Positions 3,802-48,450 are shown, counted from the first letter of the stretch. The stretch is 64,000 bases of DNA from Gemmatimonadota bacterium (GCA_031416115.1 JANOTB010000133.1:3205-67204); one strand, 5' to 3'. Notes: generated by a model not told the origin, from the letters alone. Made by a program: numbers and translations.

Positions 3802-5280
3802 TTGGCAAGCTCGCTCTTTCGTACGAAGTCCATCGATCTGCTCATCACCGAGAGCAGTGAGACCGGCGAACACTCGCTCAAGCGCACCCTCGGCCCTTGG
3901 GCGCTGATCGCGCTCGGCATCGGCGCGATCATCGGCGCCGGGCTGTTCGTGCGCACCGCGGCGGCGATCGCCGACCGCGCCGGCCCCTCGGTCACGCTCG
4001 CGTTCATGGTCGCCGGCCTCGGGTGCGCCTTCGCGGGCCTGTGCTACGCGGAGTTCGCGAGCATGATCCCGATCGCCGGCAGCGCCTACACCTACTCCTA
4101 CGCCACCATGGGCGAGTTCATCGCCTGGATCATCGGCTGGGACTTGGTGCTCGAGTACGCCGTGGCCGCCTCGACCGTGGCGATCGCCTGGTCGGAGTAC
4201 TTCAACAAGGTGCTCGGGTTCGTCGGACTCAGTATCCCGTACCAATGGTATCACTCGCCATTCGAGGTCTCGGCGGCAGGCGTGAATGGCATCATGAACA
4301 TCCCTGCGGTGGTGATCCTCGGACTGCTGTCGGCCGTGCTCGTGCGCGGGACGAAGGAGTCGGCCCTGCTCAACGGCATCATCGTGGTCGTCAAGCTCGC
4401 GGTCGTGCTGATGGTGATCGTGATCGGATGGGGCTTCATCAACCCGGCGAATCACACGCCCTACATCCCCGCGGCGACGACGTATGTGAGCCCGAGCGGC
4501 ATCACGCACAACTACGGTGGCATCCTGGGCATCCTCGGAGCCGCCGGCGTGGTCTTCTTCGCCTTCATCGGATTCGACGCGGTCTCGACCGCGGCGCAGG
4601 AAGCGAAGAATCCCAAGCGCGACATGCCGATCGGCATCCTCGGCTCGCTCGTGATCTGTACCGTGCTCTACATCCTGTTCGCGCACGTCTTGAGCGGCGT
4701 CGCGACGGTTGAGGACTTCCGCACCCAGGGCCGCGAGGCCTCGGTGGCGTACGCGATCAGCACGTACATGCCCGGCTACGAGTGGCTGGCGAAGGCGGTG
4801 TCGGTGGCGATCCTTGCCGGCTTCTCGTCGGTCATCCTCGTGATGCTCCTCGGTCAGTCGCGCGTGTTCTACACCATGAGCCGCGACGGGCTCGTGCCCA
4901 AGGTGTTCTCGGACCTGCACCCCAAGTTCCGGACGCCGTACAAGTCCAACCTGATCTTCTTCATCTTCACGGCGCTCGTCGGTGCGTTCGTGCCGGGCGA
5001 CATCGTCGGCGAGATGACGAGCATCGGGACACTGTTCGCGTTCATGCTCGTCTGCGCCGGGGTCTGGATCATGCGCGTGCGCCGTCCGGACGTGCCGCGC
5101 GGCTTCACCGTGCCGGCGTTGCCGCTCGTGTCGGTGCTCGGCATCGTCACCTGCGGTGCGATGATCTACGGCCTTGGCTGGACCAACTGGCTCCGGCTCG
5201 CGGCCTGGCTCGCGGTCGGCATGGTGATCTACTTCGCCTATAGCCGCAAGCGCAGTCGCCTCAACTCGGCGGCGGCGTGA
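3802..5280 (+). CDS. APC-superfamily amino acid permease (cationic amino acid transporter/YhdG-like)
   Basis: Polytopic hydrophobic profile. The N-terminal SLFRTKSIDLL and LIALGIGAIIGAGLFV motifs are typical of this family. TTG start with GGAGG 4 nt upstream. Confidence 0.85.
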   Translation: MASSLFRTKSIDLLITESSETGEHSLKRTLGPWALIALGIGAIIGAGLFVRTAAAIADRAGPSVTLAFMVAGLGCAFAGLCYAEFASMIPIAGSAYTYSYATMGEFIAWIIGWDLVLEYAVAASTVAIAWSEYFNKVLGFVGLSIPYQWYHSPFEVSAAGVNGIMNIPAVVILGLLSAVLVRGTKESALLNGIIVVVKLAVVLMVIVIGWGFINPANHTPYIPAATTYVSPSGITHNYGGILGILGAAGVVFFAFIGFDAVSTAAQEAKNPKRDMPIGILGSLVICTVLYILFAHVLSGVATVEDFRTQGREASVAYAISTYMPGYEWLAKAVSVAILAGFSSVILVMLLGQSRVFYTMSRDGLVPKVFSDLHPKFRTPYKSNLIFFIFTALVGAFVPGDIVGEMTSIGTLFAFMLVCAGVWIMRVRRPDVPRGFTVPALPLVSVLGIVTCGAMIYGLGWTNWLRLAAWLAVGMVIYFAYSRKRSRLNSAAA

Positions 5281-5384
5281 GTGGTACCACCGATGTGACG
5301 GCGCAGGCGAAGGGCGGATCGGGCGGAGGACTCATTCTCGTTGGTATTCTGGTCGCGATCGTGGGCGTGGATGTCGCGCTCCTG

Positions 5385-33545: not shown

Positions 33546-34439
33546 ATGGCAAGTATCGCGTACCTCGGCACCGGCCTCCTCGGCGCCGCCTTCGTGGAGG
33601 CCGCATGCAAGCGTGGCGATTCCGTCACGGTCTGGAATCGCACCACGGCCAAGGCCCGCGCGCTGCAGCTGTTCGGCGCGCACGTCGCTGGCTCACCGGA
33701 GATGGCCGTGCGCGGCGCCGAGCGTGTGCACCTGGTGTTGCAGGACGACGCGTCGGTGGAAGAGGTCGTACGGGCGTTGCGCCCCGGCCTCGCGCCCGGG
33801 GCGATCATCGTGGACCACACGACGACGCTCCCCATGCTCACGGCCGCGCGTGCGACGCGGCTCAACGCCGAGGGAGTCCACTACCTGCACTGCCCGGTGT
33901 TCATCGGACCCGCAGCGGCGCGCGAGGCGCAGGGGATCATCATGGCCTGTGGCCCGCGAGCACTTTTCGAGCAGGTGAAGCCCGCACTGGAGCTACAGGC
34001 GCTGCGCGTTGAGTACCTGGGAGAGCGCAACGACCTCGCGGCGGTGATGAAGCTCTGCGGCAATGCGTACATCATCGGCAGTGGCGGGCTGCTCGCGGAC
34101 GTCTTCTCGATCGCCGCGAACTCCGCGGTGAAGCCGGGTGAAGCGCTCTCGCTGCTCAACTTCTTCTTCGGCGCGGGGATCATCGCCGGGCGCGGCACGA
34201 AGATGGCGGCGGGTGACTACACCGCGAGCTTCGAGCTCACCATGGCACGCAAGGACGTGCGACTGATGATCGAGACCGCGGGAGCGTTGCCGCTGGCGCT
34301 GTTGCCCGGGCTGGCGGCGCGCATGGATGCGCTGATCGCCGAGGGGAACGGAGCGCTCGACATGGGCGTGATGGCGCGGGATGCGGTCGCGCGGGATGCG
34401 GTCGCGCGGGACCCGCACGGCGGGACCCGCGCCGAGTAG
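33546..34439 (+). CDS. NAD(P)-dependent beta-hydroxyacid dehydrogenase-like oxidoreductase
   Basis: ATG 33546 places the Rossmann motif IAYLGTGLLGAAF at the N-terminus. MKLCGNAYI and ARKDVRL motifs of the HIBADH/6PGDH-NAD family are present. Confidence 0.75.
   Translation: MASIAYLGTGLLGAAFVEAACKRGDSVTVWNRTTAKARALQLFGAHVAGSPEMAVRGAERVHLVLQDDASVEEVVRALRPGLAPGAIIVDHTTTLPMLTAARATRLNAEGVHYLHCPVFIGPAAAREAQGIIMACGPRALFEQVKPALELQALRVEYLGERNDLAAVMKLCGNAYIIGSGGLLADVFSIAANSAVKPGEALSLLNFFFGAGIIAGRGTKMAAGDYTASFELTMARKDVRLMIETAGALPLALLPGLAARMDALIAEGNGALDMGVMARDAVARDAVARDPHGGTRAE
34374..34411 (+). repeat. in-frame 15-nt tandem repeat gcgcgggatgcggtc x2.5 (ARDAV ARDAV ARD)
   Basis: Read directly from the sequence, at the 3' end of the oxidoreductase gene. 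Confidence 0.9.
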
Positions 34440-34526
34440 GGCGCCCCACCTGCGGAGTGCTCGCGGAGAGGATATCATACGGCTGTTGCGGCACATCCTC
34501 GGCCGCACTCCTGTTCCGGAGCTCGA

Positions 34527-36842
34527 CTGCCTCACCAGCTCGACAAACTGCGTTCGGCCCTCGGCGCCTCCTACCGGCTCGAAGATCTTGTCGGCTCCGG
34601 AGGCATGGCGTCGGTCTATCGCGCGATCGACCTCCGTCATGATCGCGTGGTGGCGATCAAGGTGCTGCGCCCCGAACTCGCGAGCAGCGTCAGCCTTGAG
34701 CGATTCAACGCCGAGGTGCGACTCACGGCGAGCCTGCAGCACCCGCACATCCTCCCGCTGCATGACTCGGGAGGCGCGGGTGATCTGCTCTTCTACGTCA
34801 TGCCGTTCGTCGAAGGCGCTCGGACGTTGCGTGGGCGCATCGAGGCGAGTGGTCCCATGCCGATCGATGAAGCGATCGAGGTGGCCGTCGTCGTCGGCCG
34901 CGCGCTCGACTACGCGCACAAGCGCGGCGTGATCCATCGCGACATCAAGCCGGAGAACATCCTGATGTCGAACGGTGTGCCGATCGTCGCCGACTTCGGC
35001 ATCGCACGGATCGCCACTGCGGACGGCACCCGCGTGACGGGTACCGGGATATCGGTCGGCACGCCCTCGTACATGAGTCCGGAGCAGGCGGAAGGCGACC
35101 CAGGGGTGGACGCGCGCACGGACATCTACGCGCTGGGCGCGATGCTCTTCGAGATGATCGCCGGTGAAGCGCCGTTCGGGAGTGGCACCTCGGTGGGGAT
35201 ACTCAAACGACTCTTCACCGAACCCGCACCGCCGCTCGCCTCGCGACGGAGCGACGTACCGCCCAGCGTGGCGGCCGCCGTCGCGCGGGCGCTCGAGAAG
35301 CAGAAGTCGTTGCGCTTTGCGACGGCCGCGGAGTTCGTGCTCGCCTTGCGCGTCGGTCTTCGCACCGACGCCCCCGAGACAACCGGAACGCCGGGTAGCA
35401 CGAGCGGGCGTGTTGGCGCTACGGCCGCCGTCGCAGACGAGCGGTCGGTCGCGGTGCTGCCGCTGGTGAACGTGGGCAACGATCCCGAGCACGACTACTT
35501 CTGCGACGGGATGACCGACGAGTTGATCACCACGCTCTCGCGCCTGCGCGGCGTGCGCGTGGCATCGCGAACGTCGGTCTTCTCGTTCAAGGGACGCGGC
35601 GCCACGGTCGAGGACATCGGCCGCGCGCTCAACGTCGCCTATGTGCTCGAAGGCAGCGTGCGCCACGCCGGCGCGCGGGTCCGTATCAGTGCGCAGCTGA
35701 TCGAGATCCGCACCCAACACCAACGCTGGGCCGAGCGGTTCGACCGCAACCTCGACGACGTGTTCGCGCTGCAGGACGAGCTCGCCCTCACGATCGCCGA
35801 CGCCTTGTCGGTGCGCCTCTCGACCGCCGGCGGCGACGAGATCACCGGCGTGCGGCGCGGCACCGAGAACCTTCCCGCCTACGAGCTGGTGCTCAAGGGG
35901 CGGTACTTCTGGAATCAGCGAGCGCTCGACAAGGCGATGGGGTGCTTCCAGGAGGCGGTGCGTCTCGACTCCGAATTCGCACAGGCGTGGGCCGGACTCT
36001 CGGACGGCTTCTCGTTCCTCAGTTACTACGGCGCGCTCCCACCGCAGGTGGCTTTCGATCGCGGGCGGGCGGCCGCCGAACGCGCGGTCGCTGCCGACGC
36101 GCAGCTGCCGGAGGCGCAGTACGCGCGGGGACTGTTCGAGTTGCTCCTCGGACACGACATGGAGCTGTCTGGCCGCGCGCTGCGACACGCGATAGAACTG
36201 GGGCCGCGTCATGGTGGCTCACACGCGACGCTCTGCCAGTGGCTCGCGTTCACCGGCGACGTCAGCACCTCACACCGCGAGGCGGAAACGGCCCTGCACC
36301 TCGAGCCGCTGTCACCACTGGTCGCGGCAACGGTGGGCTGGGCCGCCGTGCTGAGCCGCGAGCCGGATCGCGCCGAGCGCTTCGTGCGACGGGGACTGGA
36401 ACTCGATGCGAACGCGCTGCCCTGCCTCTGGACGCTCGGCGGTGCGCACTTGGAGCGCGGCAACGTCGCCGAGGCGCTCGACTGGTTCGGCCGGGCCGTC
36501 GCGAGGTCCGGACGCTTGCCGTACATGGTCGCGCTGCACGCGCACGCGGCGGCGGTGGCGGGAGACGACGCGACCGCGCGCGCCGCGCTGCTCGAGATCA
36601 CCACGCGCGCTGACGGGCCGCGACCGGGGCTTGCGGCGTGGATCCATCTCGGACTCGGAGAGCTCGAGCAAGCGATCCCCCTGCTCTCTCAGGCGCTTGC
36701 GGAACACGACCCACACGCGCTGACGCCGCTCGCCATGCTGCATGCCGGCCGCGCAGCGGTCGCCGACGCGCGCTACGCCGACGCGCTCACGCGTGCGGGG
36801 CTCGGCGAGCTCTACCGCGCGCGCACAGCGCTGACCTCGTAG
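34527..36842 (+). CDS. Ser/Thr protein kinase with periplasmic-type TolB-like module and TPR tail
   Basis: HRDIKPENIL, DFGIA and GTPSYMSPEQ motifs. The ORF track starts at ATG 34605, inside the glycine loop (GSGGMASVY). The conserved N-terminus LDKLRSALGASYRLEDLVGSGG is encoded upstream. The only upstream start-like codons are CTG 34527 and 34548. Confidence 0.8.
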   Translation: MPHQLDKLRSALGASYRLEDLVGSGGMASVYRAIDLRHDRVVAIKVLRPELASSVSLERFNAEVRLTASLQHPHILPLHDSGGAGDLLFYVMPFVEGARTLRGRIEASGPMPIDEAIEVAVVVGRALDYAHKRGVIHRDIKPENILMSNGVPIVADFGIARIATADGTRVTGTGISVGTPSYMSPEQAEGDPGVDARTDIYALGAMLFEMIAGEAPFGSGTSVGILKRLFTEPAPPLASRRSDVPPSVAAAVARALEKQKSLRFATAAEFVLALRVGLRTDAPETTGTPGSTSGRVGATAAVADERSVAVLPLVNVGNDPEHDYFCDGMTDELITTLSRLRGVRVASRTSVFSFKGRGATVEDIGRALNVAYVLEGSVRHAGARVRISAQLIEIRTQHQRWAERFDRNLDDVFALQDELALTIADALSVRLSTAGGDEITGVRRGTENLPAYELVLKGRYFWNQRALDKAMGCFQEAVRLDSEFAQAWAGLSDGFSFLSYYGALPPQVAFDRGRAAAERAVAADAQLPEAQYARGLFELLLGHDMELSGRALRHAIELGPRHGGSHATLCQWLAFTGDVSTSHREAETALHLEPLSPLVAATVGWAAVLSREPDRAERFVRRGLELDANALPCLWTLGGAHLERGNVAEALDWFGRAVARSGRLPYMVALHAHAAAVAGDDATARAALLEITTRADGPRPGLAAWIHLGLGELEQAIPLLSQALAEHDPHALTPLAMLHAGRAAVADARYADALTRAGLGELYRARTALTS

Positions 36843-36864
36843 GCGCTCAGCGCCTGCGTTTGCA

Positions 36865-36916
36865 GCTCAGGCCGCGAGCTCAGGCCTCCCGCTCAGGCCT
36901 CCAGCTCAGGCCTCCA
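36865..36916. repeat. 13-nt tandem repeat gctcaggcctcc(a/c) x4 spanning the stop codon of the 614-aa patatin gene
   Basis: Units start at 36865, 36878, 36891 and 36904, with a degenerate fifth at 36917. Each unit carries tca, which is TGA on the minus strand. Confidence 0.9.
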
Positions 36917-38750
36917 GCTTCGCCATCGGCTGCGTCGGACGTGCGGCCCGCGGCACGAGCGCAACGGGATTCTCGGTGAAGCGAGCCCAATCGGCCTCGG
37001 CGCGCGAGAGCAGTTCCTGCAGATCCGTGCGATGCGCCCCGCTTTTTTCCCTCAGCCGTCGACGGAGAAAGACGATGAGGTTGCGGCACATGCACATCTG
37101 GCCCGTCGCGACGAGCTCCTCGAGCTGATGCGGCTTGTCGTACCAGAAGGCTGTCGGCTGCTTCGCGGCGAGTTCACCGACGGCCTTCATGTTCGGCGAG
37201 ACCGTCGGCGCGTCCATTGGCGGAACGACCGACAGGCTGAAGATCTCGACGCTCAGGAGCTGACGGCGCCAGCCGGGGAATCCATAGAGCAGTGAATAGC
37301 CGAGGATGCGATGCCGCACGAAGAAGATGTCGCTGACGACCGACATGAGTGCGGCGATCCGGATGTGCACGAGCCATGGCAGCTGCGCGATGCGGAGACG
37401 ACGGAGGAAACTCCACGTGCTCGGCGCGGCGCCGGGATCGGCCTCCCGACGACCTTCGGTCTCGAGGATCTGATCGACGGCAGCGAGCACCTCCCTGACC
37501 GTGCGCCGCGTGACGACGAGCGCCACGAAGACGGCGGCCGCGAGCAGGATCGGGACGATGTAGTTGAGCGTCGTGAGCCCAGGCACCTCGTCCATGTGCA
37601 GATTCGTGAGCATCCACTCGTTCTGTTGCATCAACTGAAAGAGGTCGACACCCACGACCAGTGCGGTCGCACCGGTGAGCAGGACGAGGATCCACCACGC
37701 CCACAGCGCCGACGACAGTCGGAGCCCCTTGTCGGGCGGTTGTGCGAGCGTGCGCAGCGGGCCTCCGTCCGTCGGTCCGGCGGCGTAGCCCGCGCGGAAG
37801 ATCGGATCGGCCTCACTGACCGCGTCCGAGATGATCACAACGCCCGGCGGGTCCTTGGGCACCTTTCCCGCCGCGATCTGCTGAAAGAGCAGATCGAACT
37901 CACCCTCGAATCGTTGCGACTCGCTGATCCCCCTGAACACCTCCGACTCCGCAGCCAGACCCGGATCGGGAGCACTGTCACCGTCCTCCCATCGAATGCG
38001 CGTCGCGGCCTGCATCATGGCCTCGAGGCCCTGATTGTCGTAGAGGCCGCCATCCATGAGCGGGACCGCATCGACTCCCTTCGTCCGGAATCCGTCGCGC
38101 AGCGCCTCGAAGTCCCGCACGCCCTCGGCGCCCTCCCAGACGAAGTCCTCGGGAAAGAAGAATGGCTCCATGCCTCCCGGCAGGCAGGAGGACGAGGCCA
38201 TCACGTCAGCGAGCCGAGCATGCCGCAACCGTTCGGGATCGATCGGCGACTGTCCGTTCCCTGCCGGCGCGTTCAGCTGGAACCGGAACCCGAGTCCGGA
38301 ACGGAAGTCGGTCGCGTTGATGATCACTTCCTCCAGATGACCGACGGGTTTCCATCCGCCATTGGGCTGCCGCTTGAGGAACTCTCCGAACTTGAAGTCC
38401 TCGAAGAAGTGCGTGTTGTATGCCTCCGCCAGCGACGAGATCACGGTGCGTCGTCCCGCGTGCCCTCGTGGCGGGCGATTGGCGAAGTTGTCGAGGACCC
38501 ACTCCGCCATCCGTCCACGGCGCAGCTTGTCGAGCATCCAGTTGCTGTACTGCTCGAAGCTCTGCCCCTTGGCCTGAGACATCGCGTAGGTGCTCGTCAC
38601 GAAGCCGCCGCCCGACGCACCGGAGATCACGGCGACGTCCTGCAGCAGTCCCATGCGATCGAGATAGCTCAATACGCCCAGGTGATAGCCGGCGGCGCGC
38701 GTGCCGCCGCCTGAGAGTCCGAGCGAGATGCGGCCGAATGGGCGTGTCAT
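36906..38750 (-). CDS. patatin-like phospholipase with C-terminal transmembrane domain
   Basis: Gly loop LSGGGTRAAG. Nucleophile elbow GASGG (about 38607-38621). Catalytic Asp in LMDGGLYDNQG (about 38046-38054). Three or more C-terminal hydrophobic helices. ATGA overlap with the desaturase. Confidence 0.85.
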   Translation of the reverse strand: MTRPFGRISLGLSGGGTRAAGYHLGVLSYLDRMGLLQDVAVISGASGGGFVTSTYAMSQAKGQSFEQYSNWMLDKLRRGRMAEWVLDNFANRPPRGHAGRRTVISSLAEAYNTHFFEDFKFGEFLKRQPNGGWKPVGHLEEVIINATDFRSGLGFRFQLNAPAGNGQSPIDPERLRHARLADVMASSSCLPGGMEPFFFPEDFVWEGAEGVRDFEALRDGFRTKGVDAVPLMDGGLYDNQGLEAMMQAATRIRWEDGDSAPDPGLAAESEVFRGISESQRFEGEFDLLFQQIAAGKVPKDPPGVVIISDAVSEADPIFRAGYAAGPTDGGPLRTLAQPPDKGLRLSSALWAWWILVLLTGATALVVGVDLFQLMQQNEWMLTNLHMDEVPGLTTLNYIVPILLAAAVFVALVVTRRTVREVLAAVDQILETEGRREADPGAAPSTWSFLRRLRIAQLPWLVHIRIAALMSVVSDIFFVRHRILGYSLLYGFPGWRRQLLSVEIFSLSVVPPMDAPTVSPNMKAVGELAAKQPTAFWYDKPHQLEELVATGQMCMCRNLIVFLRRRLREKSGAHRTDLQELLSRAEADWARFTENPVALVPRAARPTQPMAKLEA

Positions 38751-39628
38751 GAGGTAGCCTCGGGGTGATGCAGCGGGTCAGTGTGGAGCAACGGTTGCGG
38801 CCGGCGTAGCGCCTCGGGCACCTCGTGCACGTCCCAGACGAGCCCGAGCGCCGCGAGCAGTTTGATCGCCACGTAGTTCATGTCGACCTGCCACCACTGG
38901 AACCCGGCGCGCGCGGCCGTCGGGTACCGGTGATGATTGTTGTGCCAGCCCTCGCCCCAGGTGATGAGCGCCACGAGCACGTTGTTGCGCGATCCCTCCT
39001 TGGTGTCAAAGGGACGAGCGCCCCAACGGTGGCAGGCATAGTTCACCGCCGACGTCAGATGCAAGGCCGTGACCAGCGCCAGCGCGAAGCCGATCGCCAT
39101 GCGCGGGACTCCGCCCCAGAGGAAGTAGAGGCCGGCCACCGCGGCACCCGGCACCCAGTAGAACCGGTGCAACCAGCGCAACTCGGCATGGCGCATGAGA
39201 TCGGGACAGGCCGCGGTCACCTGGGCATCAGTGAGATGATCGTCGGCGAGACTCCAGATCCAGCACGAGAACCAGCCGTCGTTGGGCGAGTGCGGATCGC
39301 CTTCGGTGTCGGAGAAGCGGTGGTGGATGCGATGCTTGCCCGCAAAGCCGATCGGATCGGTGAAGGCGAGACAGCTCCCCACCGCGAGCACCAACTGTCC
39401 GGCGCGGCTGGTCCGGAACGCACGATGCGCGAAGTAGCGATGCAGTCCGCTCGCGACGAAGAACGCGATGATCAGGTGCGTGACGACGAAGGTCCACCAG
39501 TCGGCCGCGGTGGTGCCGGCGATGACGGCGGCGAGTGGGAGCAGATGGAGCGCGAGCAGGAACACGATCACCCGGGCAGTCTGCCACCAGGGTTGCACCG
39601 AGACCCGCGGACGCGGCGTGAGCGGCAT
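38747..39628 (-). CDS. membrane acyl-CoA/acyl-lipid Delta9-type fatty acid desaturase
   Basis: Three His boxes: HRYFAHRAF, HRIHHRFSD and GEGWHNNHHRYP. Confidence 0.9.
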   Translation of the reverse strand: MPLTPRPRVSVQPWWQTARVIVFLLALHLLPLAAVIAGTTAADWWTFVVTHLIIAFFVASGLHRYFAHRAFRTSRAGQLVLAVGSCLAFTDPIGFAGKHRIHHRFSDTEGDPHSPNDGWFSCWIWSLADDHLTDAQVTAACPDLMRHAELRWLHRFYWVPGAAVAGLYFLWGGVPRMAIGFALALVTALHLTSAVNYACHRWGARPFDTKEGSRNNVLVALITWGEGWHNNHHRYPTAARAGFQWWQVDMNYVAIKLLAALGLVWDVHEVPEALRRPQPLLHTDPLHHPEATS

Positions 39629-41166
39629 CAGGCCTCCGCGGGAACGGCGGGAGTGCGGCGCGACCTGAGGAGATCATCCGCGATCGTCGGATTCAACGTG
39701 CCGTCGGCTAACGTGACCATGGTCGGCCGGAACCAGCCGGCGTACTGCGGAGCCACGGGGTGCCGCGGCGTATAGACCGGATCGACACGATCGGTGCCGC
39801 CGATGTGCGTGCGGGGCGCGCGGGACTGGAACAGGTAGCGCGGGTTGGAGAGCCCTTGTGGAGACATGATGCTGCCTATGGTCAGCGCGGACGACAGATG
39901 CACATGCGGCTCGAGCGCGTCGAGATAGTGCCAGTGGAAGCGTGCCTGATGCGCGAGGAAGCGTCCCTTGCGACCCACGAGATTCTTGGTGGTCCGCAGG
40001 AAGGTCGCCGCCGTCTCCTCGCCGTCGAGCGCACGGAGGTTCAGCGTGGAGCCCTCGAGGTCGCGCACTTTCGTACTGGGAAGGATCAACCCGCGCCCGT
40101 GCCGGTCGGCGAAGAACGGCGTGCCCGGGAATGGCGTGGCGACGAAGATGAAGTTGGGCGCCGGGATCGTGTGGTCGTCCGCGATCGTGTCGAGCTCGCG
40201 CTCCATGTCGGCGACCCGACGTTCGGTGGGATCGAACACCAGGCCGTACTGGAAGAGGATCCCTGCCTCGAGGCAGCGGCGGATGAGCGCCTGCTGCGAC
40301 TCGCGGACGTTCTGCGGCTTGTTGATGCTGCGCAGCCACGCGGTGTCGAACGACTCCACGCCGATCAGCAGCGAGATGCAGCCCGACTCCTTCGCGCGGC
40401 GGATGTTCTCCGCGTCCCAGAGGAAGGCGTCGGTGACGAAACCCGCCCAGAACTTGAAGAGCCCGCGTTCGCGTGCGCGCTTGAGCACGTCGAGTCGCGC
40501 GGCGAAGGCATCGCGCCCCGCCCCTGCGAACTGATTGTCGGCGATGTGCAGCAGCACGCGCGGGCCCATCGCTTCGAGGTCGCGCATGAACATCGCGGCG
40601 TCGGTGCCCTTCCACGGGAGCGAATCGGCAGTGAGCGTGCAGAAACTGCATCGGAAGTTGCAGTTGCGACTCGACTCGGCGTAGCCGATCCAGCGGCCCA
40701 TCCAGGTCGCGAGGTCGTAGCGCGGCACCGGGTCCTCGGCGACGTACTGTTCACCGAAGGCCTCGCGGATGACCTCGCGGATCTCCTCGACGTCGCCGCG
40801 GCAGGCGTAGTCGAACTTCGTCGCCGCGTGCGCTGGGAGCAGCCGGACCGCAAGTCCGCCGGCGATCGTGACGACGGACGGATCGTGCGTCTTGAAATAC
40901 GCGCTCAGGTGAAGGAACCGATCGAACGCCGCGGTGAGCCCGCAGAACACGACGACTTCAGGCCACTGCAGAAGCTCCGGCGCGAAGATCTCGAGGTGGC
41001 CGTTCGCGACCTCGTTGTAGAGACGGATCTCCCACTGCTCGCGCGCGAAGTGACCCGCGAGATGCACCGGGGCCAAGGGCATGGGCATCTCGTTGGGTAA
41101 CTGCATGGGCACCCGAGTCTCGGGCCAGTAGCAGTTCACGATCAGCACGCGCTTGCGATGCGCCAT
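39628..41166 (-). CDS. B12-binding-domain-like radical SAM enzyme (class B type)
   Basis: N-terminal Rossmann-like VLIVNCYWPE...VVVFCGLTAA...VTIAGGLAV. The CNFRCSFC (CxxxCxxC) cluster is at 40639-40662. The stop shares one base with the desaturase ATG. Confidence 0.8.
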   Translation of the reverse strand: MAHRKRVLIVNCYWPETRVPMQLPNEMPMPLAPVHLAGHFAREQWEIRLYNEVANGHLEIFAPELLQWPEVVVFCGLTAAFDRFLHLSAYFKTHDPSVVTIAGGLAVRLLPAHAATKFDYACRGDVEEIREVIREAFGEQYVAEDPVPRYDLATWMGRWIGYAESSRNCNFRCSFCTLTADSLPWKGTDAAMFMRDLEAMGPRVLLHIADNQFAGAGRDAFAARLDVLKRARERGLFKFWAGFVTDAFLWDAENIRRAKESGCISLLIGVESFDTAWLRSINKPQNVRESQQALIRRCLEAGILFQYGLVFDPTERRVADMERELDTIADDHTIPAPNFIFVATPFPGTPFFADRHGRGLILPSTKVRDLEGSTLNLRALDGEETAATFLRTTKNLVGRKGRFLAHQARFHWHYLDALEPHVHLSSALTIGSIMSPQGLSNPRYLFQSRAPRTHIGGTDRVDPVYTPRHPVAPQYAGWFRPTMVTLADGTLNPTIADDLLRSRRTPAVPAEA

Positions 41167-41196
41167 CAGGACGGCTCCAGGGTGAGGAGCGTGAAG

Positions 41197-44100
41197 CTAG
41201 GGAGGACCGGTCGTGACGGATAGAGTCGCGAGGCGCGCGATCCAGGCCTCGAACTCCGCGAAGGAGAGCGCCTCGCCGCCAGGCACCGAGCGGGAGGTCT
41301 CGAGCGCGCCCTCGGCAATGTGCTGACCGAGCGCACGGTAGGCTTCGAACTGGTCCTCGTCAAAGGCCTGGTCCGCAGTCGACTGATGCGGGAAGTCGGG
41401 ATAGCGATGCCGATACTCGCGAATGACCTCACGCTCGTCGCCGGTGAAGGACGACTTGAGGTAGAGCAGGTAGCCGGTCTCGGTCGCCCCTGCCCCATCG
41501 CGGGGCGGGTAGGTGATCGTGCCGACGGTCCAGTGCGCTGCGCTCACCTGGCCAGCGTCGCGCTCCTCGGTCGAGGCGCGGAGCCGCAACGCGTCGAGGT
41601 CGAGGTCGATACCGATGCCCAAGTCGATGCTCGCATAGCGCATGAGTCGCGCGAGACCGGCGAAGTGCAGCATGGGATCGGCCTCACCGTCGCCGATGAT
41701 GATGTACTTGCAACGGCGACGGAGCAGTTCGATCCCGGCGAGGTTCTCAATGTGGCCCCCGTCGGAGAGATTCACCCAGTCGTGCGTCTCGTCGAGCCTA
41801 CTGAGCGCCTCGCGCAGCAGCGCGGCCGGGCGCACGCGCCAGCGGAAGCGCGAGCCCTGCGTGTCGCGACGACGGATCAGGTTGCTACCGACCGCGACTA
41901 TTTCGCCCTGCTTGACGTTCAGCGCATCGAACCTCGTGTACCGGTACTCTCGGGGCGCCACTCCTGCCTGCCCCGTCACACGCACGATCGACGCGCCCTC
42001 GGCCGAGGTCTCGACGTCGACCACTCCCGCGACCTCGCTCCGGCCCCGCATCGTTCGCGGTCGCAGCAATGAGCGGCCCGCCACGATCGTTTCCCCGTGC
42101 GTCACTCCGAGTGCGGCACGCTCCGTGAATCGGTACGTGCGCGGCGGCTCGCCGGCCCCTTGCGGCGTCACGGTCACGACCTGCTCGCCGAGTCGCCCGT
42201 CGGCCAACGCCGGCGTGCGCTCGATCGACACCGTTCCGGTGCTCTCGCTGCGGAGCGCCTCGCGGGCCCGCATCAAGGTGCTGATGCTCGATCCAACGTA
42301 CCCGCCTCCCGAGACCGTCGACATGTAGTCGCAGTGATCGAACACGCCGGCCTGGTGCAACGCCTGCGAGATCCCGAGATTGAGCGACGCGGAGCGGATG
42401 CCACCGCCCGAGAACGCGATGCCGACGAGTCCGTGCGCGACGGTCGGGGTCCGTTGCGCATCGGGGGCGGCCCCCAGTGCCCGCACGGGCCCGTCGGGAT
42501 ACACCTGGCTTCGCCGGCTCTCGATCTCGTGCAGTTCGTCGGCGAACACCTCGTCGAACGAGAACCCTTCGAGCCGTCGCGGGTTCGGCACCCAGAACCC
42601 CAGCCGCACATTGATGAGCGTCATGAAGGCGACGAGGAGCGGCGACGTGCCGCGACCCATGTTCGGTGCCGCGGCGGCGGCCGAGATCGCCATCGCCGTC
42701 GCAACGTCCAACTGCGGGAAGACCTGCTCCAACGTTTCGCTGCGGCAGTAGCCGGTGCGGTGTCCGCCCACATACCGCGGCGTGAAACAGAAGAAGTCAC
42801 TCTGTCGATCACGGATCCCGATGTCGGTGCTGGCCTGGAGGTTGAGCGCGACGTTGATGATGTGATAGGGCGCCGTTGAGCGCGCCTCGTAGCGGCAGAT
42901 CTCGTCGAGGGCGACGTCGTCCTCGATGCCGATGTCGCCCTTCGTGTCCCTCCCCACGAGGAAGGCCGACGCGAGCCGATCGCGGTAGAGTCCGTGGATC
43001 GAAGTGAGATTGACGTCGACCGTGATCCAACAGCCGAGCCAGATGACGACGATCAGCAGGACGATGAAGATCACCTTGGGCGGCATGAGCTGCGTGGTGA
43101 CCCGACGTTTCACCTTGGCGAGAGCGACCTGTTCGAGCCGTCCGTGGACCCCGAACATGAGTTTCGCCAAGAGCTCATCGGTGCGGAGTGGATCGTTCCG
43201 CCAGTACAGGGCCACTGCCACCATCGCCATCTCGTCAGCGCCCAACAGATAGAAAGGGTTGGTCGCGAACGCGTCCATCACGACGTCGTACTGCTTGTGC
43301 ACATCCGGTCCCGCTGAGGCGTCAGCAAGAGCGCGCTCGATCAACTGCACGCGCGCGAGCGCCGCGAGCGCTTGCGTGTCGTTGCGAAGCGCCTTGGCCG
43401 CGACGAGGTATCGGAGCCGCAGTGCGTCGGGCCAGAGCGCCGGTGCCCGGTCTCGAATGGCGCGCCGCTCGGCGTCCGTGCGATCCTCGTAGGGTTCGAT
43501 CTCCCCTCCCACGGCCGGCGGGAACGGCACAGCCGCGAGCGAGTCCAGTGGCACGCGTTCGAGCGCGAGAAAGGACTTCCACCGTGCGGAGCTCGCCCAG
43601 TCCTGCTCGATCGAATCGGCAAGCGCGCGAAGACGTCCCTCGGGCTGCTCGTAGGACTCCCCGAACGCCAGGCCCCGCAGGTAGTCGGCGTCGATCTCCG
43701 CGACGGCGTGCCCGGCGAGCTGCAGTGCGGCCGCACGGCCGATCTCGTCGTCGGTGGGCTCAGCGTTGCGAGTCGGTGGACCAGCGGCGCTCGCCACGTC
43801 CGCGCCGAACGCGGCGTTGGTGCGATGGAATAGCGCGAGTCGATGCGACGTGGACTCTTCCGGGATCTCACGCACGGCGGCGAGACGGGTCGACAGGGTC
43901 GCGAGGACGCGGGCCGTCGCGGCCGACGCGGCCGACGTGCTGTCCGGACCGACCGGGAAGCGCGGCACGGCCGCGCGGAGCAATCGGGCGCGTTCGGAGC
44001 GCGTGGGAGGCGCCAGTCCGCGCGCGAGCGCCGATGGGAAGACGAGGTCGAGGAGTTCCTGATGCGTCAGCAGCGTGGCGAGCTCGCGCGTTCCGGCGAG

Positions 44101-45744
44101 CTGCGCTCTCTTCGCGGTGCCCGGGACGTCGTCAAACTTCTTCTCCACCGCGCGCAGCAGGGCCTCCTCATCAAGCAGCACCGCGATCCCGGCGTCGTCC
44201 GACACGGTGAGCGCCCACCGCATCGCATCGCGGGCGCGCTCACGCACGCTGTCGGCGACCAATCGTCCGTAGCGCGAGCGGACCGCGAGCCGAGGGTCGC
44301 GCTTGACGTCGGGAGTCTCTGACGGGGCCTTGCGAAGCTCCAACTCGAGGTAGTGATCGAGCAGCGCGTCCGAGAGGTGCGTCGCCACTCCGTCGTGCCC
44401 TCCCACTTGACCGGCGATCTCATCGATCACGCCGACCCGCGCCAAACGGACGAGTTCCTCGCGCAACGGGTCGAGTTCAGTGGTCGGACGTCGAGAGAGC
44501 CGATACGCGAGCGACGCCAGCGGCATCTGCGACTCCAGATAGCTCGCCGCGCGCTTGGCATCGGTCTCCGCCTCGCGCAGCGGCGCGATCACGTCATACC
44601 AGCCACCTCGCATGCTGTCGGCTCTCGCCGCACGGATGCTGTCCTGCCGAAGCTCGTCCAGCCGCAGTGCGCCGCCAGCTTGATACTGTGCGTTCGCGAA
44701 CGCGCCAGCGTCCAAGAGCGTGACCACTTCGGGCGAGAGATCCTTTCGGTTCTCGATCCGCTCGAACTGCGCAGCGGTCTCCTTCATCATCCCGAGCGTC
44801 TGCTCGAGCTCCTTGTTGCCTGCGCCCGCCTCATCCATCGCGATCGAGCCCAGCCACACGACCCCCACGGCCACTCCGACGCTCACCACAACGAGCCCCG
44901 AGACCGCGGCGACCTCACGCGGCAGGAACGCACGACGTCGCACGCCGAGCACGATCGTGATGACGAGTCCGATCACGCCGGCGACCGGCACGGCCAATGG
45001 ACTGATCATCCAGAGGAACGACGGGGGAAGACCGTAGAGCAGATAGTCCGTCACCGCGACCACGACGAGCACCGGGACCAGCAGCCCGAGCACGCCGACC
45101 AGGACCATCGCGACCTGCTTGCGGACACCGCTCAGGAGCGCGAGGAGCTGACTCGCTCCGCTCAGCGCCGCGAGTCCGATCGACGCCATGGCCAGGGTGC
45201 CCGGCCAGGTCACCGACCCGAGCTGCAGGCGATCATGGAAGGACTCGAGCAGCCACGGCAGCGACTCGAGCGCGAAGATGAGGCCTGCCGCGAGCAGCAG
45301 CGCGCCGAAGGACCGTTCGTACCGGTCGCGCTGACCGACCGTGCTCTCACTGCCGGTCTCCACACTCCTGTTGTGCAGTACGACGCGCAGGATCGGCACC
45401 GACAGGGCGAACAGGAGCACCCAGACGAACGCGAAGCCGAGCACACCGAGCGTCAGATAGAACGGGTGCGAGCGCAGCCAGTGGTGGGAGTAGGCGAGAC
45501 CGATCGCCAGCGCGAGGAGATACGGAACGAAGATCAGGAAGTTGATGACCATCCCGCGTAGCAGAACGCCGGCGGCGCGGAGGTAGTCGAGCAACCCCCG
45601 CGCCGTCATGTAGTTCGAATGATTGCGGATCCACGTGAGGTACGGGGACTCCTCGGGCCCGCGACTCACGGGGAACGGGTACCGGCCCGCCTCGCTGCGC
45701 TGCGCCGTCGTGCCCGCGTCCTGCGCTCGGTCCCGCTCGATCAC
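41197..45744 (-). CDS. 1515-aa polytopic membrane protein with C-terminal rearranged patatin-like phospholipase domain
   Basis: GTG start with a GTGA overlap to the upstream gene. About 7 N-terminal TM helices and a ~600-aa Ala/Leu/Arg-rich helical region. Patatin motifs: SGGGIRS (42391-42411), TVSGG (42304-42318), SDGGHIENLAG (Asp about 41761-41763) and the FPHQSTADQAFDEDQFEAYR tail. Confidence 0.8.
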   Translation of the reverse strand: MIERDRAQDAGTTAQRSEAGRYPFPVSRGPEESPYLTWIRNHSNYMTARGLLDYLRAAGVLLRGMVINFLIFVPYLLALAIGLAYSHHWLRSHPFYLTLGVLGFAFVWVLLFALSVPILRVVLHNRSVETGSESTVGQRDRYERSFGALLLAAGLIFALESLPWLLESFHDRLQLGSVTWPGTLAMASIGLAALSGASQLLALLSGVRKQVAMVLVGVLGLLVPVLVVVAVTDYLLYGLPPSFLWMISPLAVPVAGVIGLVITIVLGVRRRAFLPREVAAVSGLVVVSVGVAVGVVWLGSIAMDEAGAGNKELEQTLGMMKETAAQFERIENRKDLSPEVVTLLDAGAFANAQYQAGGALRLDELRQDSIRAARADSMRGGWYDVIAPLREAETDAKRAASYLESQMPLASLAYRLSRRPTTELDPLREELVRLARVGVIDEIAGQVGGHDGVATHLSDALLDHYLELELRKAPSETPDVKRDPRLAVRSRYGRLVADSVRERARDAMRWALTVSDDAGIAVLLDEEALLRAVEKKFDDVPGTAKRAQLAGTRELATLLTHQELLDLVFPSALARGLAPPTRSERARLLRAAVPRFPVGPDSTSAASAATARVLATLSTRLAAVREIPEESTSHRLALFHRTNAAFGADVASAAGPPTRNAEPTDDEIGRAAALQLAGHAVAEIDADYLRGLAFGESYEQPEGRLRALADSIEQDWASSARWKSFLALERVPLDSLAAVPFPPAVGGEIEPYEDRTDAERRAIRDRAPALWPDALRLRYLVAAKALRNDTQALAALARVQLIERALADASAGPDVHKQYDVVMDAFATNPFYLLGADEMAMVAVALYWRNDPLRTDELLAKLMFGVHGRLEQVALAKVKRRVTTQLMPPKVIFIVLLIVVIWLGCWITVDVNLTSIHGLYRDRLASAFLVGRDTKGDIGIEDDVALDEICRYEARSTAPYHIINVALNLQASTDIGIRDRQSDFFCFTPRYVGGHRTGYCRSETLEQVFPQLDVATAMAISAAAAAPNMGRGTSPLLVAFMTLINVRLGFWVPNPRRLEGFSFDEVFADELHEIESRRSQVYPDGPVRALGAAPDAQRTPTVAHGLVGIAFSGGGIRSASLNLGISQALHQAGVFDHCDYMSTVSGGGYVGSSISTLMRAREALRSESTGTVSIERTPALADGRLGEQVVTVTPQGAGEPPRTYRFTERAALGVTHGETIVAGRSLLRPRTMRGRSEVAGVVDVETSAEGASIVRVTGQAGVAPREYRYTRFDALNVKQGEIVAVGSNLIRRRDTQGSRFRWRVRPAALLREALSRLDETHDWVNLSDGGHIENLAGIELLRRRCKYIIIGDGEADPMLHFAGLARLMRYASIDLGIGIDLDLDALRLRASTEERDAGQVSAAHWTVGTITYPPRDGAGATETGYLLYLKSSFTGDEREVIREYRHRYPDFPHQSTADQAFDEDQFEAYRALGQHIAEGALETSRSVPGGEALSFAEFEAWIARLATLSVTTGPP

Positions 45745-46307
45745 ACGCCGCTGGTCCCGCGCGCAGGCGCACTCTTGGCTTGCCGGACGGTGTTCCTCGT
45801 GCGGACCGCGGTCCGCTCGAGCAGGGTGCGCGTGCGGGGGTGGTCGGACTGCATCTCGACGCCGACTCCCCGACTCGCACGGATGAGCATCGGGACCGCG
45901 TGCGTCGATTCCGTTCCGCCCGCATCACTGACACCCATGCCGAGCGCTCCGACAATGACCTCCTCGAGCGTTGTTTCCGCCTCCTTCATCTCGGCCTCCA
46001 GATCCTGCAGCGAGATATCGGTCTCGGCACCGGTGTCGCCGTCGTCGCCGAAGGCATCGAGGATCAACCCTGCGAGCGTTTCGAGCTCGACATCGTCATC
46101 CTCCACCTCCTCCAGGACGTCATTGAGTTCATCCCGGAGGTCGCGCATGAGCCGAGCGTCGTCATACGTGTCGAGGTCGGACCGTACGACACTCTCGTCC
46201 GCGACCGGATCACGCGTGATGGTCGCGCGCACATCGGATCGACCGAACGCGAGCGCGGCCGCCGAGAGCGCGACCACCAGACCGACACTGCGCACCTTGC
46301 GTTGCAC
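45741..46307 (-). CDS. exported, strongly acidic hypothetical protein (first gene of the operon)
   Basis: GTG start with signal peptide VQRKVRSVGLVVALSAAALAFG. It has a D/E-rich core (EEVEDDDVELETL, DDGDTGAETD). I recognise no family. Confidence 0.55.
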   Translation of the reverse strand: MQRKVRSVGLVVALSAAALAFGRSDVRATITRDPVADESVVRSDLDTYDDARLMRDLRDELNDVLEEVEDDDVELETLAGLILDAFGDDGDTGAETDISLQDLEAEMKEAETTLEEVIVGALGMGVSDAGGTESTHAVPMLIRASRGVGVEMQSDHPRTRTLLERTAVRTRNTVRQAKSAPARGTSGV

Positions 46308-46484
46308 GACGGCACTCCGTGGACAAAGGGGGCGCTCGAGGCGCTGAGTGCGCTATCTTGCCACCGGCCCGGGCACCGCGCTAGTGCGCCGCGCCGGACT
46401 GATCGTGAAACGGCGTCGACCCGTCTTGCGAATCTCGTTGGCAGCTCCTATCATCGCGCAGCCAACAACCCCGGAGTGCACCGC

Positions 46485-46907
46485 ATGGAACAGCCCCCGA
46501 AGTGGTACTTGCCGGTCGCCATCGTCGCCCTGCTCTGGAACCTGCTCGGCTGTGCCGCCTACCTCGCCGACGTGATGCTCACCCCAGAGGACGTCGCCAA
46601 GATGACCGCGGCAGAGCAAGCGATGTACGCCGCGCGCCCCGCCTGGTCGGTCACGGCAACGGCGATCGCGGTCTGGGCCGGCGCGCTTGGCAGCCTCGGC
46701 CTGATCCTGCGCAAGCGCTGGGCGCTGCCGCTGCTCGTCGCGTCGGTGCTGGGGCTCGTCGTGCAGGATGTGTCCATCTTCGCGCTGAGCCCAGCGGAGG
46801 CGAAGCCCGAGACGGCAGCGTACGCGATCCAGGGCACGGTACTACTGATCGGTGTGGGTCTGCTGTTGCTCGCGCGAAAGGCCACCGCACAGCGATGGGT
46901 CGCGTAA
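46485..46907 (+). CDS. small 4-TM membrane protein of unknown function
   Basis: ATG 46485 gives MEQPPKWYLPVAIVALLWNLLGCAAYL. There are four hydrophobic segments. The upstream part of ORF 45780-46907 is antisense to the operon and was rejected. Confidence 0.6.
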   Translation: MEQPPKWYLPVAIVALLWNLLGCAAYLADVMLTPEDVAKMTAAEQAMYAARPAWSVTATAIAVWAGALGSLGLILRKRWALPLLVASVLGLVVQDVSIFALSPAEAKPETAAYAIQGTVLLIGVGLLLLARKATAQRWVA

Positions 46908-46908
46908 C

Positions 46909-48450
46909 ATGCGCCCACGCCTGCTCCTCCTCCTCCTCGCGCTGCCGGTAGTCGTCAGCGCGCAGCGTCCCGCACCAGCGACCGCGAACGCCACCGCACC
47001 GACCGTCCCCCGCGCGATCCGCGAGATCCGCCAAGCCGACCTCCGTCGCGATCTCTTCGCCATGGCCTCACCGGCCATGCGGGGACGTGAAGGCGGCACG
47101 CTCGACGAGATGAAAGCCTCGGTCTGGGTCGCCGAGCAGTACGCGCGCCTTGGCTTGGAGCCCGCGGGAGATGACGGCACCTGGTTCCAATGGTTCAACA
47201 TCACGCGCACGCGCGTGGCGGTGTCAGCGAGCCGCGCGACGATCGCCGGCCAGGGAGTCGCGCTCTTCGAGGAGATCATCCCGCTGGGGGTTGCGCCCGT
47301 CGAAGCCGCGGGAACGGTCCTCTGGCTCTCCGATCCGGCCGACACGACGATCGACATACGTGGACGCATCGTCGCGACCATGCTGCGCGCACCGGCACCG
47401 GGGACGATCCGCCAGTACAGCTACCCCGCCTCGGCACGCTATGCGGCGGCGGCGATCACCGGCACACTCGCGCGGCTCACGCGCCGCGGCGCGGCGGCGG
47501 TGCTGCTCGTGGCCGACTCGACGGTGGACATGGACTTCTACGCGCTGGCCCTCACACGGGCGCGCGGCGACTACGACGTGGACAACGCGACGCCACGGAG
47601 CGCAGGGGGGTCCAGTCGCGTGGCACCGGTCCCCGTGCTCGGCGCCGGGCCGTCTCCCGCGTTCGTACTGCGGGCCTCAGCGGCCGCCCTGCTTCACCTT
47701 GGCCCGGCCGCGACGCTCTCCGTTCGCCTCGAACGGTTCGAAACACCCTCAGTGAACGTCATCGGCAAGTTGCGCGGCTCCGACCCGGTGCTGCGCGACG
47801 AGTACGTGCTCTACAGCTCGCATCAGGACGCCAATGGCGTTCGGTTGCTCGTGCCCGGCGACTCGGTGCTTGCCGGCGCCGACGACAATGCCTCGGTGAG
47901 CGTCGCGCAGTTCGCCGCGGCGCGGGCGTTCGTGGCGCAGAGACCCAAGCGGTCACTGCTCTTCGTGCACCACGGCGCCGAGGAGCGCGGGCTGTTGGGC
48001 TCGCGCTACCACGCGGCGCATCCGCTGGTACCGCTGTCGCAGATCGTGACCGTACTCAATGGCGACATGATCGGCCGCAACCATCCCGACACCGCAGCCC
48101 TGCTCGGCGCACAGCCGCCGCACCGCGTCTCGAGCGAACTCGTGGCGATGGCGCTACGGGCCAACGCCGCGACCGGCCGGTTCGTGATCGACACGCTCTG
48201 GGACCGCCCGACGCACCCTGAGGGATGGTTCTTTCGCAGCGATCACCTACCGTATGCGCGACTGGGGATCCCGGCGCTGATGTACACCACGAACCTACAC
48301 GACGACTACCACACCGCAGGCGACCTCCCCGAGCGGATCGACTACGCCAAGCTCACGCGAATGGCGCAGTGGATGTACCTCACTGGGTGGTATGTGGCCA
48401 ATGCTCCCAGGCGACCGACTGTCGACGCCGGGTTCAAGCTCGAACGTTGA
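46909..48450 (+). CDS. exported M28-family aminopeptidase
   Basis: Signal MRPRLLLLLLALPVVVSAQ. Motifs GADDNASV, HGAEERGLLGS, LNGDMIG and FRSDHLPY. Confidence 0.85.
   Translation: MRPRLLLLLLALPVVVSAQRPAPATANATAPTVPRAIREIRQADLRRDLFAMASPAMRGREGGTLDEMKASVWVAEQYARLGLEPAGDDGTWFQWFNITRTRVAVSASRATIAGQGVALFEEIIPLGVAPVEAAGTVLWLSDPADTTIDIRGRIVATMLRAPAPGTIRQYSYPASARYAAAAITGTLARLTRRGAAAVLLVADSTVDMDFYALALTRARGDYDVDNATPRSAGGSSRVAPVPVLGAGPSPAFVLRASAAALLHLGPAATLSVRLERFETPSVNVIGKLRGSDPVLRDEYVLYSSHQDANGVRLLVPGDSVLAGADDNASVSVAQFAAARAFVAQRPKRSLLFVHHGAEERGLLGSRYHAAHPLVPLSQIVTVLNGDMIGRNHPDTAALLGAQPPHRVSSELVAMALRANAATGRFVIDTLWDRPTHPEGWFFRSDHLPYARLGIPALMYTTNLHDDYHTAGDLPERIDYAKLTRMAQWMYLTGWYVANAPRRPTVDAGFKLER

Follow-up and report, generated by a model that had tools for sequence, protein, structure and literature searches.

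A radical SAM enzyme translationally coupled to a membrane desaturase as a candidate lipid-tailoring module in a Gemmatimonadota bacterium

The window analysed here is a stretch of 64,000 nucleotides from a Gemmatimonadota bacterium (GCA_031416115.1, JANOTB010000133.1:3205-67204), in which an earlier, sequence-only reading had placed a class-B-like radical S-adenosylmethionine (SAM) enzyme between lipid enzymes and had proposed a fatty-acyl or membrane-lipid substrate for it. This enzyme (P0001) was found to be encoded in translational coupling with a membrane desaturase of the stearoyl-CoA desaturase (SCD) type (P0123). As this coupling is conserved and the neighbouring genes handle lipids, an acyl chain is the most probable substrate. 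In particular, the sequences make a membrane-lipid acyl chain a distinctly probable substrate, and it is reasonably probable that the enzyme and its partner desaturase together act on the acyl chains of membrane glycerophospholipids through a radical modification.

The segment 39628-41166 was confirmed to hold an intact radical SAM open reading frame (ORF) of 512 amino acids, but on the minus strand, and its codon-position GC content (0.65/0.47/0.88) followed the pattern of real genes in this window of 68% GC. The CNFRCSFC motif lay at 40639-40662 as claimed, corresponding to residues 169-176. Start and stop had both been described as coupled to neighbouring genes. On the stop side this proved correct, with the TGA of the radical SAM gene (39628-39630) sharing one base with the ATG of the desaturase gene (39626-39628) in the sequence TGATG. 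On the start side the described coupling to a patatin gene proved to be a short gap, the gene of the patatin-like protein P0122 ending 30 nt before the radical SAM ATG, close to it without overlapping; a GGAG sequence lies about 8 nt 5′ of this ATG. Moreover, the patatin-like phospholipase P0124 is encoded downstream of the desaturase, the start of its gene joining the desaturase stop by an ATGA overlap. A 110-aa ORF (41166..41498), ending exactly at the radical SAM start, was rejected as spurious given its non-coding codon-position GC content.

The gene context was compared across 80 metagenomic and nine genomic loci (L-numbered), which are mutually related; the counts are descriptive, and no statistical test was applied. 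The phylogenetic tree of the family presented two main clades, each with 100% support. Clade A comprised proteins 47-96% identical to P0001 (47-81% in the metagenomic loci with the desaturase), and a flank of at least 600 nt was required. A desaturase gene followed directly downstream, on the same strand, in 41 out of 43 clade-A metagenomic loci, as well as in all the Gemmatimonadaceae relatives with flank (genomes L002-L006). The stop of the radical SAM gene overlapped the start of the desaturase gene in 24 out of 27 unambiguous loci (17 by ATGA and 7 by TGATG). Among the 41 desaturases, 38 were of the SCD type, while the remaining three were of another FA_desaturase type, seen in a single radical SAM sub-clade only. 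On the tree, the desaturase type tracked the radical SAM sub-clade, as in co-evolution. In the two exceptions, the position of the desaturase was occupied by a patatin or by a FeeM-like N-acyl synthase/aminotransferase fusion. An otherwise conserved operon lacking the radical SAM gene was not encountered, the radical SAM-desaturase pair being the invariant core of the module.

Other lipid-related genes recurred around this core. A homologue of P0124 appeared within 3.5 kb downstream in 17 out of 28 clade-A loci, and a small cytidine diphosphate (CDP)-alcohol phosphatidyltransferase was recurrent, being present in 13. Furthermore, in two loci (L029:10459-12963 and L061:10563-13238) the pair was directly followed by the gene of an MMPL/HpnN-like RND transporter that has a sterol-sensing domain. 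The constant, coupled desaturase and the recurrence of lipid enzymes and transporters thus lent strong comparative support to the lipid substrate proposed from the window alone. In the closest relatives, the conserved set consisted of the radical SAM enzyme, the desaturase, the patatin and a convergent kinase-TPR protein, while the upstream genes varied.

The partner P0123 matched PF00487 with 62 bits and carried the histidine boxes HRYFAH, HRIHH and HNNHH. When compared with human/mouse stearoyl-CoA desaturase, residues 14-273 aligned to 4zyo with an E-value of 9.4e−30, including all three boxes, which identifies it as a true desaturase of the SCD type. Two further fatty acid desaturases are encoded elsewhere in the genome, which makes P0123 an extra copy. 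P0001 had no transmembrane segment, while hydrophobic membrane segments were found in the desaturase and in both patatin-like proteins. Judged from the sequences, P0001 is best read as a soluble or peripheral enzyme paired with a membrane di-iron desaturase.

Regarding the architecture of P0001, the Pfam Radical_SAM family (PF04055) matched residues 166-313 with 35.7 bits (cut-off 29.5). An AlphaFold2 model built with 132 homologues reached a mean predicted local distance difference test (pLDDT) score of 92.4 and a predicted template modelling score of 0.92. The N-terminal domain was also modelled alone (pLDDT 90.8) and aligned to 48,161 PDB representatives without the Foldseek prefilter. The top seven matches were all corrinoid-binding domains, with Z values between 10.9 and 12.1 (4jgi, 12.1; TokK, 11.8; AerR, 11.8; 1y80, 11.5; MetH, 10.9-11.1). 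The Rossmann-like, B12-binding-type module described beforehand is therefore real as a fold, while cobalamin binding itself is a prediction. Near-invariant or fully invariant residues were found on the loops following all five strands of this domain (N11/Y13/R18; E52/G56; G76-L77-T78/D82-R83; A102-G103-G104; C122/G124-D125), and the 'vvaGG' stretch (beta3-alpha3-beta4) aligned weakly to the cobalamin domain of TokK. In the barrel, D210-N211-Q212-F was invariant and aligned with the 'DANF' of TokK/CysS. The C-terminal region was modelled with pLDDT values of 88-98 and had R368, R452, P467, F479 and G489 as invariant residues.

Beyond the best match, discussed below, whole-protein structural matches extended to many radical SAM structures and included the cobalamin-dependent enzymes OxsB, MgmA, TsrM and CysS (Z 18.6-19.4) and TokK (Z 14.2). 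A similar value of about 18 was obtained for MiaB/RimO, which reflects a common two-domain layout. The only conserved cysteines of the N-terminal domain were C12 and C122, too few for an auxiliary [4Fe-4S] cluster of the MiaB/RimO type, which takes three, and neither the C-terminal TRAM domain of those enzymes nor an MTTase match was found. The glycerol dialkyl glycerol tetraether (GDGT) enzyme GDGT-MAS (7tol) appeared only at Foldseek rank 48 (E 1.7e−3, template modelling score 0.26). A link to branched GDGTs was also considered and found no support, and by this rank P0001 does not appear to be Tes/Mss-like. At the sequence level, a PDB search with P0001 alone gave nothing significant; the family profile retrieved weak matches only (OxsB with an E-value of 5e−6, TokK and AprD4), and the N-domain profile retrieved TokK at an E-value of 0.22.

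The family placement was carried out by hidden Markov model (HMM) scoring of P0001 and its nearest out-family neighbours, as a tree-based placement at similarities of 28.5 bits or less would be long-branch noise. P0001 fitted none of the named B12-dependent radical SAM families, as all the named models scored at most 28.5 bits against cut-offs of 250-750. The NCBIfam scores were 28.5 bits for PhpK (cut-off 600), 23.0 for BchE (481), 22.5 for HpnJ (577.6) and 20.8 for HpnR (650), while HpnP, AprD4 (NF033070, cut-off 500 bits) and TIGR04072 (rSAM_ladder_B12) gave no match at E ≤ 0.01. The nearest out-family neighbours likewise belonged to no named family. A clustering with a non-lipid radical SAM family, named in advance as an outcome that would speak against a lipid substrate, was thus not seen by this scoring.

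Among 1.84 billion cluster representatives, about seven full-length clusters at 50% identity scored at least 300 bits, after which the scores fell to about 130 bits. Within the best 120 matches, full-length homologues were 51-92% identical. The taxa available were Gemmatimonadaceae, Xanthomonadales/Gammaproteobacteria and Myxococcota, all of them represented by metagenome-assembled genomes, and the protein atlas gave only generic names for the family. In Gemmatimonadota, the gene was present in two out of 201 sampled genomes, one of which was the window's own, and it was found in none of the three genomes of the same genus; seven more species representatives had copies 83-96% identical. By sequence, P0001 belongs to a compact, strongly conserved, discrete and uncharacterised family.

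A mechanism can be outlined, with the order of its steps inferred. The SCD-type di-iron desaturase would put a cis double bond into the chain. The radical SAM enzyme would then cleave SAM reductively, and the resulting 5′-deoxyadenosyl radical would take a hydrogen at or next to the double bond; the chain has its weakest C-H bonds in allylic position. The lipid radical would be quenched, most likely by methyl transfer from methylcobalamin held in the N-terminal domain, by analogy with most class B enzymes, or alternatively by cobalamin-assisted cyclisation or C-C bond formation. Patatin-like lipases might subsequently set the modified chain free or redistribute it, and other lineages could employ a CDP-alcohol phosphatidyltransferase to build the final lipid or an MMPL exporter to move it. 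The neighbouring kinase and cyclase-STAND-TPR proteins may control the module or sense its product. A cobalamin-dependent methylation at or close to the double bond that the desaturase introduces is offered, again by analogy, as a tentative assignment that falls somewhat short of even chances. Live alternatives would be a ring closure like that of Grs, an additional desaturation like that of Ted, or a rearrangement without cobalamin like that of AprD4.

Several observations weigh against the proposed cobalamin-dependent action on acyl chains. First, a desaturase that requires O2 and a radical SAM enzyme that is sensitive to it would have to operate next to each other; HpnP is an enzyme that functions in aerobes. 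Second, the best structural match of the whole protein was AprD4 (6fd2; Z 22.5, rmsd 3.5 Å, 380 aligned residues), whose Rossmann domain is not known to bind cobalamin. Third, the Pfam B12-binding family (PF02310) scored below its cut-off in residues 34-131 of P0001 (23.9 vs. 32.1 bits; 27.2 bits in the genome scan), while many family members carry a precomputed PF02310 match. Moreover, CheY-like receiver domains came next in the N-domain comparison, with Z values of about 10-10.9, no more than about 1-1.5 Z below those of the corrinoid domains. CobS was not found in the window's genome, which is 98% complete, so cobalamin would have to be imported, and the organism is probably a cobalamin auxotroph importing the cofactor. 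Finally, in clade B, the sister clade with 38-45% identity, no desaturase was found in any of the 24 loci, and the common denominator of the neighbours was signalling proteins, not lipid enzymes.

The question of the cofactor bears on the chemistry that could be expected. Cobalamin use by P0001 is slightly favoured. The invariant loops of the N-terminal domain sit where such domains hold their ligand. No canonical DxHxxG motif and no conserved histidine ligand were found, H35 being replaced by leucine in most family members. As a rule, class B enzymes do without a histidine ligand in binding cobalamin, and nothing can therefore be concluded from the absence of the motif. The genome of the bacterium contains one cobalamin riboswitch (C87:11973-12144) and two other canonical B12-binding proteins (contigs C254 and C156). 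The alignment of the family profile to the B12 domains of the genome's MetH and mutase with hhalign returned no alignment, for which single-sequence templates are uninformative. If the Rossmann domain merely shaped the substrate site, the enzyme could be a cobalamin-free, AprD4-like catalyst of the radical dehydration, rearrangement or epimerisation of a hydroxylated lipid or polar head group, with no methylation. To this the lead of 6fd2 over the next entry (Z 19.4), the sub-threshold Pfam score and the lacking DxHxxG motif and histidine would all conform. However, the NCBIfam AprD4 model did not match P0001 (E ≤ 0.01), the isolated N-terminal domain best matched true corrinoid binders, and the invariant GLT and GG loops sit where B12 domains, as in MetH, hold the nucleotide tail. 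An AprD4-like activity is thus regarded as improbable.

A role as an O2-independent lipid desaturase appears similarly doubtful. Here, P0001 would remove two hydrogens from the acyl chain, and through its pairing with an O2-dependent di-iron desaturase, unsaturated lipids or an additional double bond could be formed while the oxygen of sediments fluctuates. O2-dependent and O2-independent enzymes are commonly found in pairs (HemF/HemN, AcsF/BchE). The constant partner is itself a desaturase, and the archaeal Ted is a B12-dependent radical SAM enzyme desaturating lipid tails without O2 (bioRxiv 10.1101/2025.10.20.683597). However, overlapping codons force co-expression, which fits sequential steps better than alternatives for different oxygen regimes, and no specific similarity to the named lipid B12-dependent radical SAM families was detectable.

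The signalling neighbours deserve separate consideration. Directly upstream in 24 out of 34 clade-A loci, a STAND-type protein of about 1150 amino acids was encoded (adenylate/guanylate cyclase or kinase, AAA_16 and TPR), which matched the 'TOMM system kinase/cyclase fusion protein' model with 479 bits; the window's own operon has no such gene. In L002-L005 and L011-L013, the gene next after that of the patatin belonged to the kinase-TPR cluster C7. In clade B, the neighbours were kinase-STAND, TIR-NACHT, winged helix-turn-helix (wHTH)-TPR or kinase-TPR proteins, or else a TRAP transporter and a beta-helix protein. In one of these loci (L062:1020-7813), the radical SAM gene was followed by TIR-NACHT and then by a UbiA prenyltransferase. 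The TIR-NACHT neighbour matched Avs2 and TIR defence models in PADLOC-DB 2.0, while P0001, P0122, P0123, P0124, the clade-A STAND protein and the CDP-alcohol transferase had no match in this database. Large signalling proteins therefore flanked the family in both clades (cyclase-AAA_16-TPR, kinase-AAA_16-TPR, TIR-NACHT, wHTH-TPR and kinase-TPR), as exemplified by L016-L058 in clade A, L024:4384-7962, L081:3055-6522, L062:2686-5982 and L086:6028-7821, with a propeller histidine kinase as the signalling neighbour in one locus. The link is too regular for chance, and a regulator, a product sensor or a substrate may each be conceived.

Rather than only adjusting the membrane as a whole, the pair might also make a dedicated lipid-derived signal or ligand, released from phospholipid by the patatin lipases, for a neighbouring NLR-like STAND/TPR protein, kinase or cyclase, although this is unlikely. 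Less probable still, P0001 could be a non-lipid enzyme modifying the STAND/TPR/kinase neighbour or a small peptide or metabolite signal, with the lipid genes as co-regulated bystanders. The signalling proteins flanking both clades, the TOMM resemblance of the upstream STAND protein and the existence of protein-modifying class B enzymes such as MgmA would agree with it, but the tightest and most constant link in clade A is to the desaturase, through overlapping codons, and not to the STAND gene. Moreover, FA_desaturase-family enzymes act on lipids, and no precursor-peptide gene or recognition element of ribosomally synthesised and post-translationally modified peptides was noticed, with no systematic search made. 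Finally, an anti-phage or conflict system, in which a STAND NTPase would sense invasion while patatin, desaturase and radical SAM enzyme damage or remodel the membrane, is very improbable. In its favour, defence systems often contain STAND NTPases and patatin lipases, the TIR-NACHT protein of clade B has its Avs2/TIR matches and the distribution in Gemmatimonadota is patchy. Against it, no PADLOC model matched the window operon proteins or the clade-A STAND protein, the radical SAM enzyme is at least 50% identical across phyla, unlike fast-evolving defence genes, neither a compositional anomaly nor a tRNA or a sign of a mobile element was seen at the locus, and the window's version lacks any STAND gene.

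The preferred reading, a radical modification of acyl chains beside a desaturase-made double bond, was compared with known systems. A review of lipid-modifying radical SAM enzymes from August 2026 covers Tes, Mss, Gms, GrsA/B, Gmm, Cds, HpnH/J/P/R, Jaw5 and the ladderane candidates, without anything like a radical SAM-desaturase module (PMC13459092), and a 2025 preprint adds Cgm, Pgm and the tetraether desaturase Ted (bioRxiv 10.1101/2025.10.20.683597). Precedents for B12-dependent radical SAM enzymes acting on lipid tails are HpnP/HpnR, GrsA/B and Gmm (PMC13459092), together with Cgm and Ted (bioRxiv 10.1101/2025.10.20.683597). Like P0001, the hopanoid C-2/C-3 methylases HpnP/HpnR, the GDGT ring synthases GrsA/GrsB, the tetraether methylases Gmm/Cgm and Ted carry a corrinoid-type Rossmann domain in front of a CX3CX2C radical SAM barrel, are soluble or peripheral, presumably act on inert hydrocarbon tails and are encoded among lipid genes. 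However, P0001 shows no family-level sequence relationship to them, with HpnR far below its cut-off and HpnP without a match, and its presumed substrate is a bacterial fatty-acyl glycerolipid, whereas those of the group are hopanoids or isoprenoid ether lipids. Furthermore, an O2-dependent di-iron desaturase partner is found with P0001 and with none of the group (PMC13459092; bioRxiv 10.1101/2025.10.20.683597).

Among the enzymes related by fold, AprD4, the 1,2-diol dehydratase of apramycin biosynthesis, shares the N-terminal Rossmann domain and the radical SAM barrel with P0001 at 16% identity, but its substrate is an aminoglycoside and its gene context differs. TokK, CysS, TsrM, OxsB and MgmA (Z 14-19.4) are 12-15% identical to P0001, whose 'vvaGG' strand-loop and 'DxNF' barrel strand align with TokK and CysS. 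Their substrates are a carbapenem, cystobactamid, tryptophan, a nucleoside or a protein, and the family-specific C-terminal region of about 160 amino acids sets P0001 apart from them. A parallel in logic would be the route to anammox ladderanes, in which, as proposed here, a desaturase prepares the chain, there as a polyene, and a B12-dependent radical SAM enzyme acts on the unsaturated chain, there by cyclising it; this order of steps has been proposed and is unproven (PMC13459092). The anammox desaturase, however, is a phytoene-dehydrogenase-like flavoprotein working on chains bound to acyl carrier protein (ACP) in strict anaerobes, whereas the window module has a membrane enzyme of the SCD type that depends on O2, and genes for ACP or FabF are absent from it.

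Literature searches returned no description of a module of radical SAM enzyme, SCD-type desaturase and patatin, and the new activity claimed by the sequence-only reading is plausible, nothing like the module being present in the review of lipid radical SAM enzymes (PMC13459092). On sequence grounds, P0001 is most likely an uncharacterised variant of the B12-type lipid-tailoring radical SAM theme that would carry out an undescribed change of a lipid tail. The coordinates of the module and of its parts are collected in Table 1.

Table 1. Features of the radical SAM-desaturase locus, in positions of the 64,000-nt window.
Feature	Position	Strand	Basis or remark
Radical SAM enzyme P0001, 512 aa	39628..41166	minus	ORF and translation, Pfam, AlphaFold2 model, homologues
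N-terminal Rossmann-like, corrinoid-binding-type domain	40717..41166	minus	aa 1-150 (five-stranded in the model, about aa 1-140)
CX3CX2C motif, C169/C173/C176, for a [4Fe-4S] cluster	40639..40662	minus	invariant in 132 family members
Radical SAM partial TIM-barrel core, about aa 158-345	40132..40695	minus	Pfam, alignments, structural matches
Family-specific C-terminal region, about aa 346-503	39658..40131	minus	conserved, no Pfam family
Membrane desaturase P0123, 293 aa, SCD-type (Delta9-family)	38747..39628	minus	PF00487, SCD homology
Membrane-anchored patatin-like phospholipase P0124, 614 aa	36906..38750	minus	PF01734, motifs
Membrane protein P0122, 1515 aa, with C-terminal patatin-like module	41197..45744	minus	codon GC, sub-threshold patatin match
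Ser/Thr protein kinase-TPR protein	34605..36842	plus, convergent with operon	Pkinase 132 bits and TPR repeats

As for the patatin-like neighbours, P0124 matched PF01734 with 67.9 bits and presented the GGGxR, GxSxG and DGG motifs and three hydrophobic segments. P0122 had a codon-position GC content of 0.71/0.48/0.85, and its patatin match was sub-threshold (21.6 vs. 27.7 bits in Pfam) with GGGxR, SxG and DGG motifs visible. About eight N-terminal hydrophobic segments are followed in P0122 by a long, helical-looking middle part and by a further hydrophobic segment (aa 882-916) before the patatin-like module, in which the Gly-loop and Ser motifs are placed after the block that they normally precede. 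P0122 is a lineage-specific add-on, as homologues were found only in the window, L001 and L002 among the compared loci. An ORF of 188 amino acids (45741-46307, minus strand) overlaps the start of P0122 and has a coding-like codon GC content (0.74/0.46/0.79); a counterpart with 45% identity occupies the same place in L002, and no family scored above threshold. A promoter and terminator scan of 34000-47500 gave nothing above the shuffled expectation. No tRNA was found in the window, and no GC or compositional anomaly or mobile-element sign at the locus, which gives no sign of a recent island.

Variations of the locus were also observed elsewhere in the family. In L028 (9530-11080), a FeeM-like N-acyl amino acid synthase (GNAT) fused to a PhnW-like aminotransferase replaces the desaturase, which hints at an amide-lipid variant of the module. 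In L029 and L061, a CDP-alcohol phosphatidyltransferase is encoded just upstream on the opposite strand. Some clade-B contigs have two radical SAM copies in tandem (as in L074:533-2263 and 3639-5369), and in others a second, distant radical SAM paralogue (23% identity) lies beyond the TRAP-transporter/beta-helix genes in L077:403-2040 and L090:365-2110. An apparent fusion of an AAA_16 STAND protein with the radical SAM enzyme (P0302, ENA metagenome, 1229 aa) was set aside as a probable artefact, its radical SAM part containing a frameshifted stretch of about 55 residues.

To our knowledge, the lipid-modifying radical SAM enzymes described so far act on hopanoids, archaeal isoprenoid ethers, polyketide chains or, hypothetically, ladderanes, and we know of none acting on ordinary bacterial fatty-acyl phospholipids or having an O2-dependent desaturase as a fixed partner. 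If the proposal is right, a new lipid modification, for example a radical mid-chain methylation or a cyclisation beside a double bond, would occur in several widespread phyla of soil, sediment and marine habitats, and it would bear on the interpretation of lipid biomarkers, on bacterial membrane adaptation and on the catalytic range of class B radical SAM enzymes. Moreover, the conserved pairing forms a compact cassette of two to four genes that can be directly expressed and tested. Finally, given the link to STAND/TPR signalling proteins, the lipids might be regulated or serve as signals, and the reading of a lipid signal by such proteins, if true, would give bacteria a counterpart, based on radical SAM chemistry, to the lipid-mediator signalling of eukaryotes.

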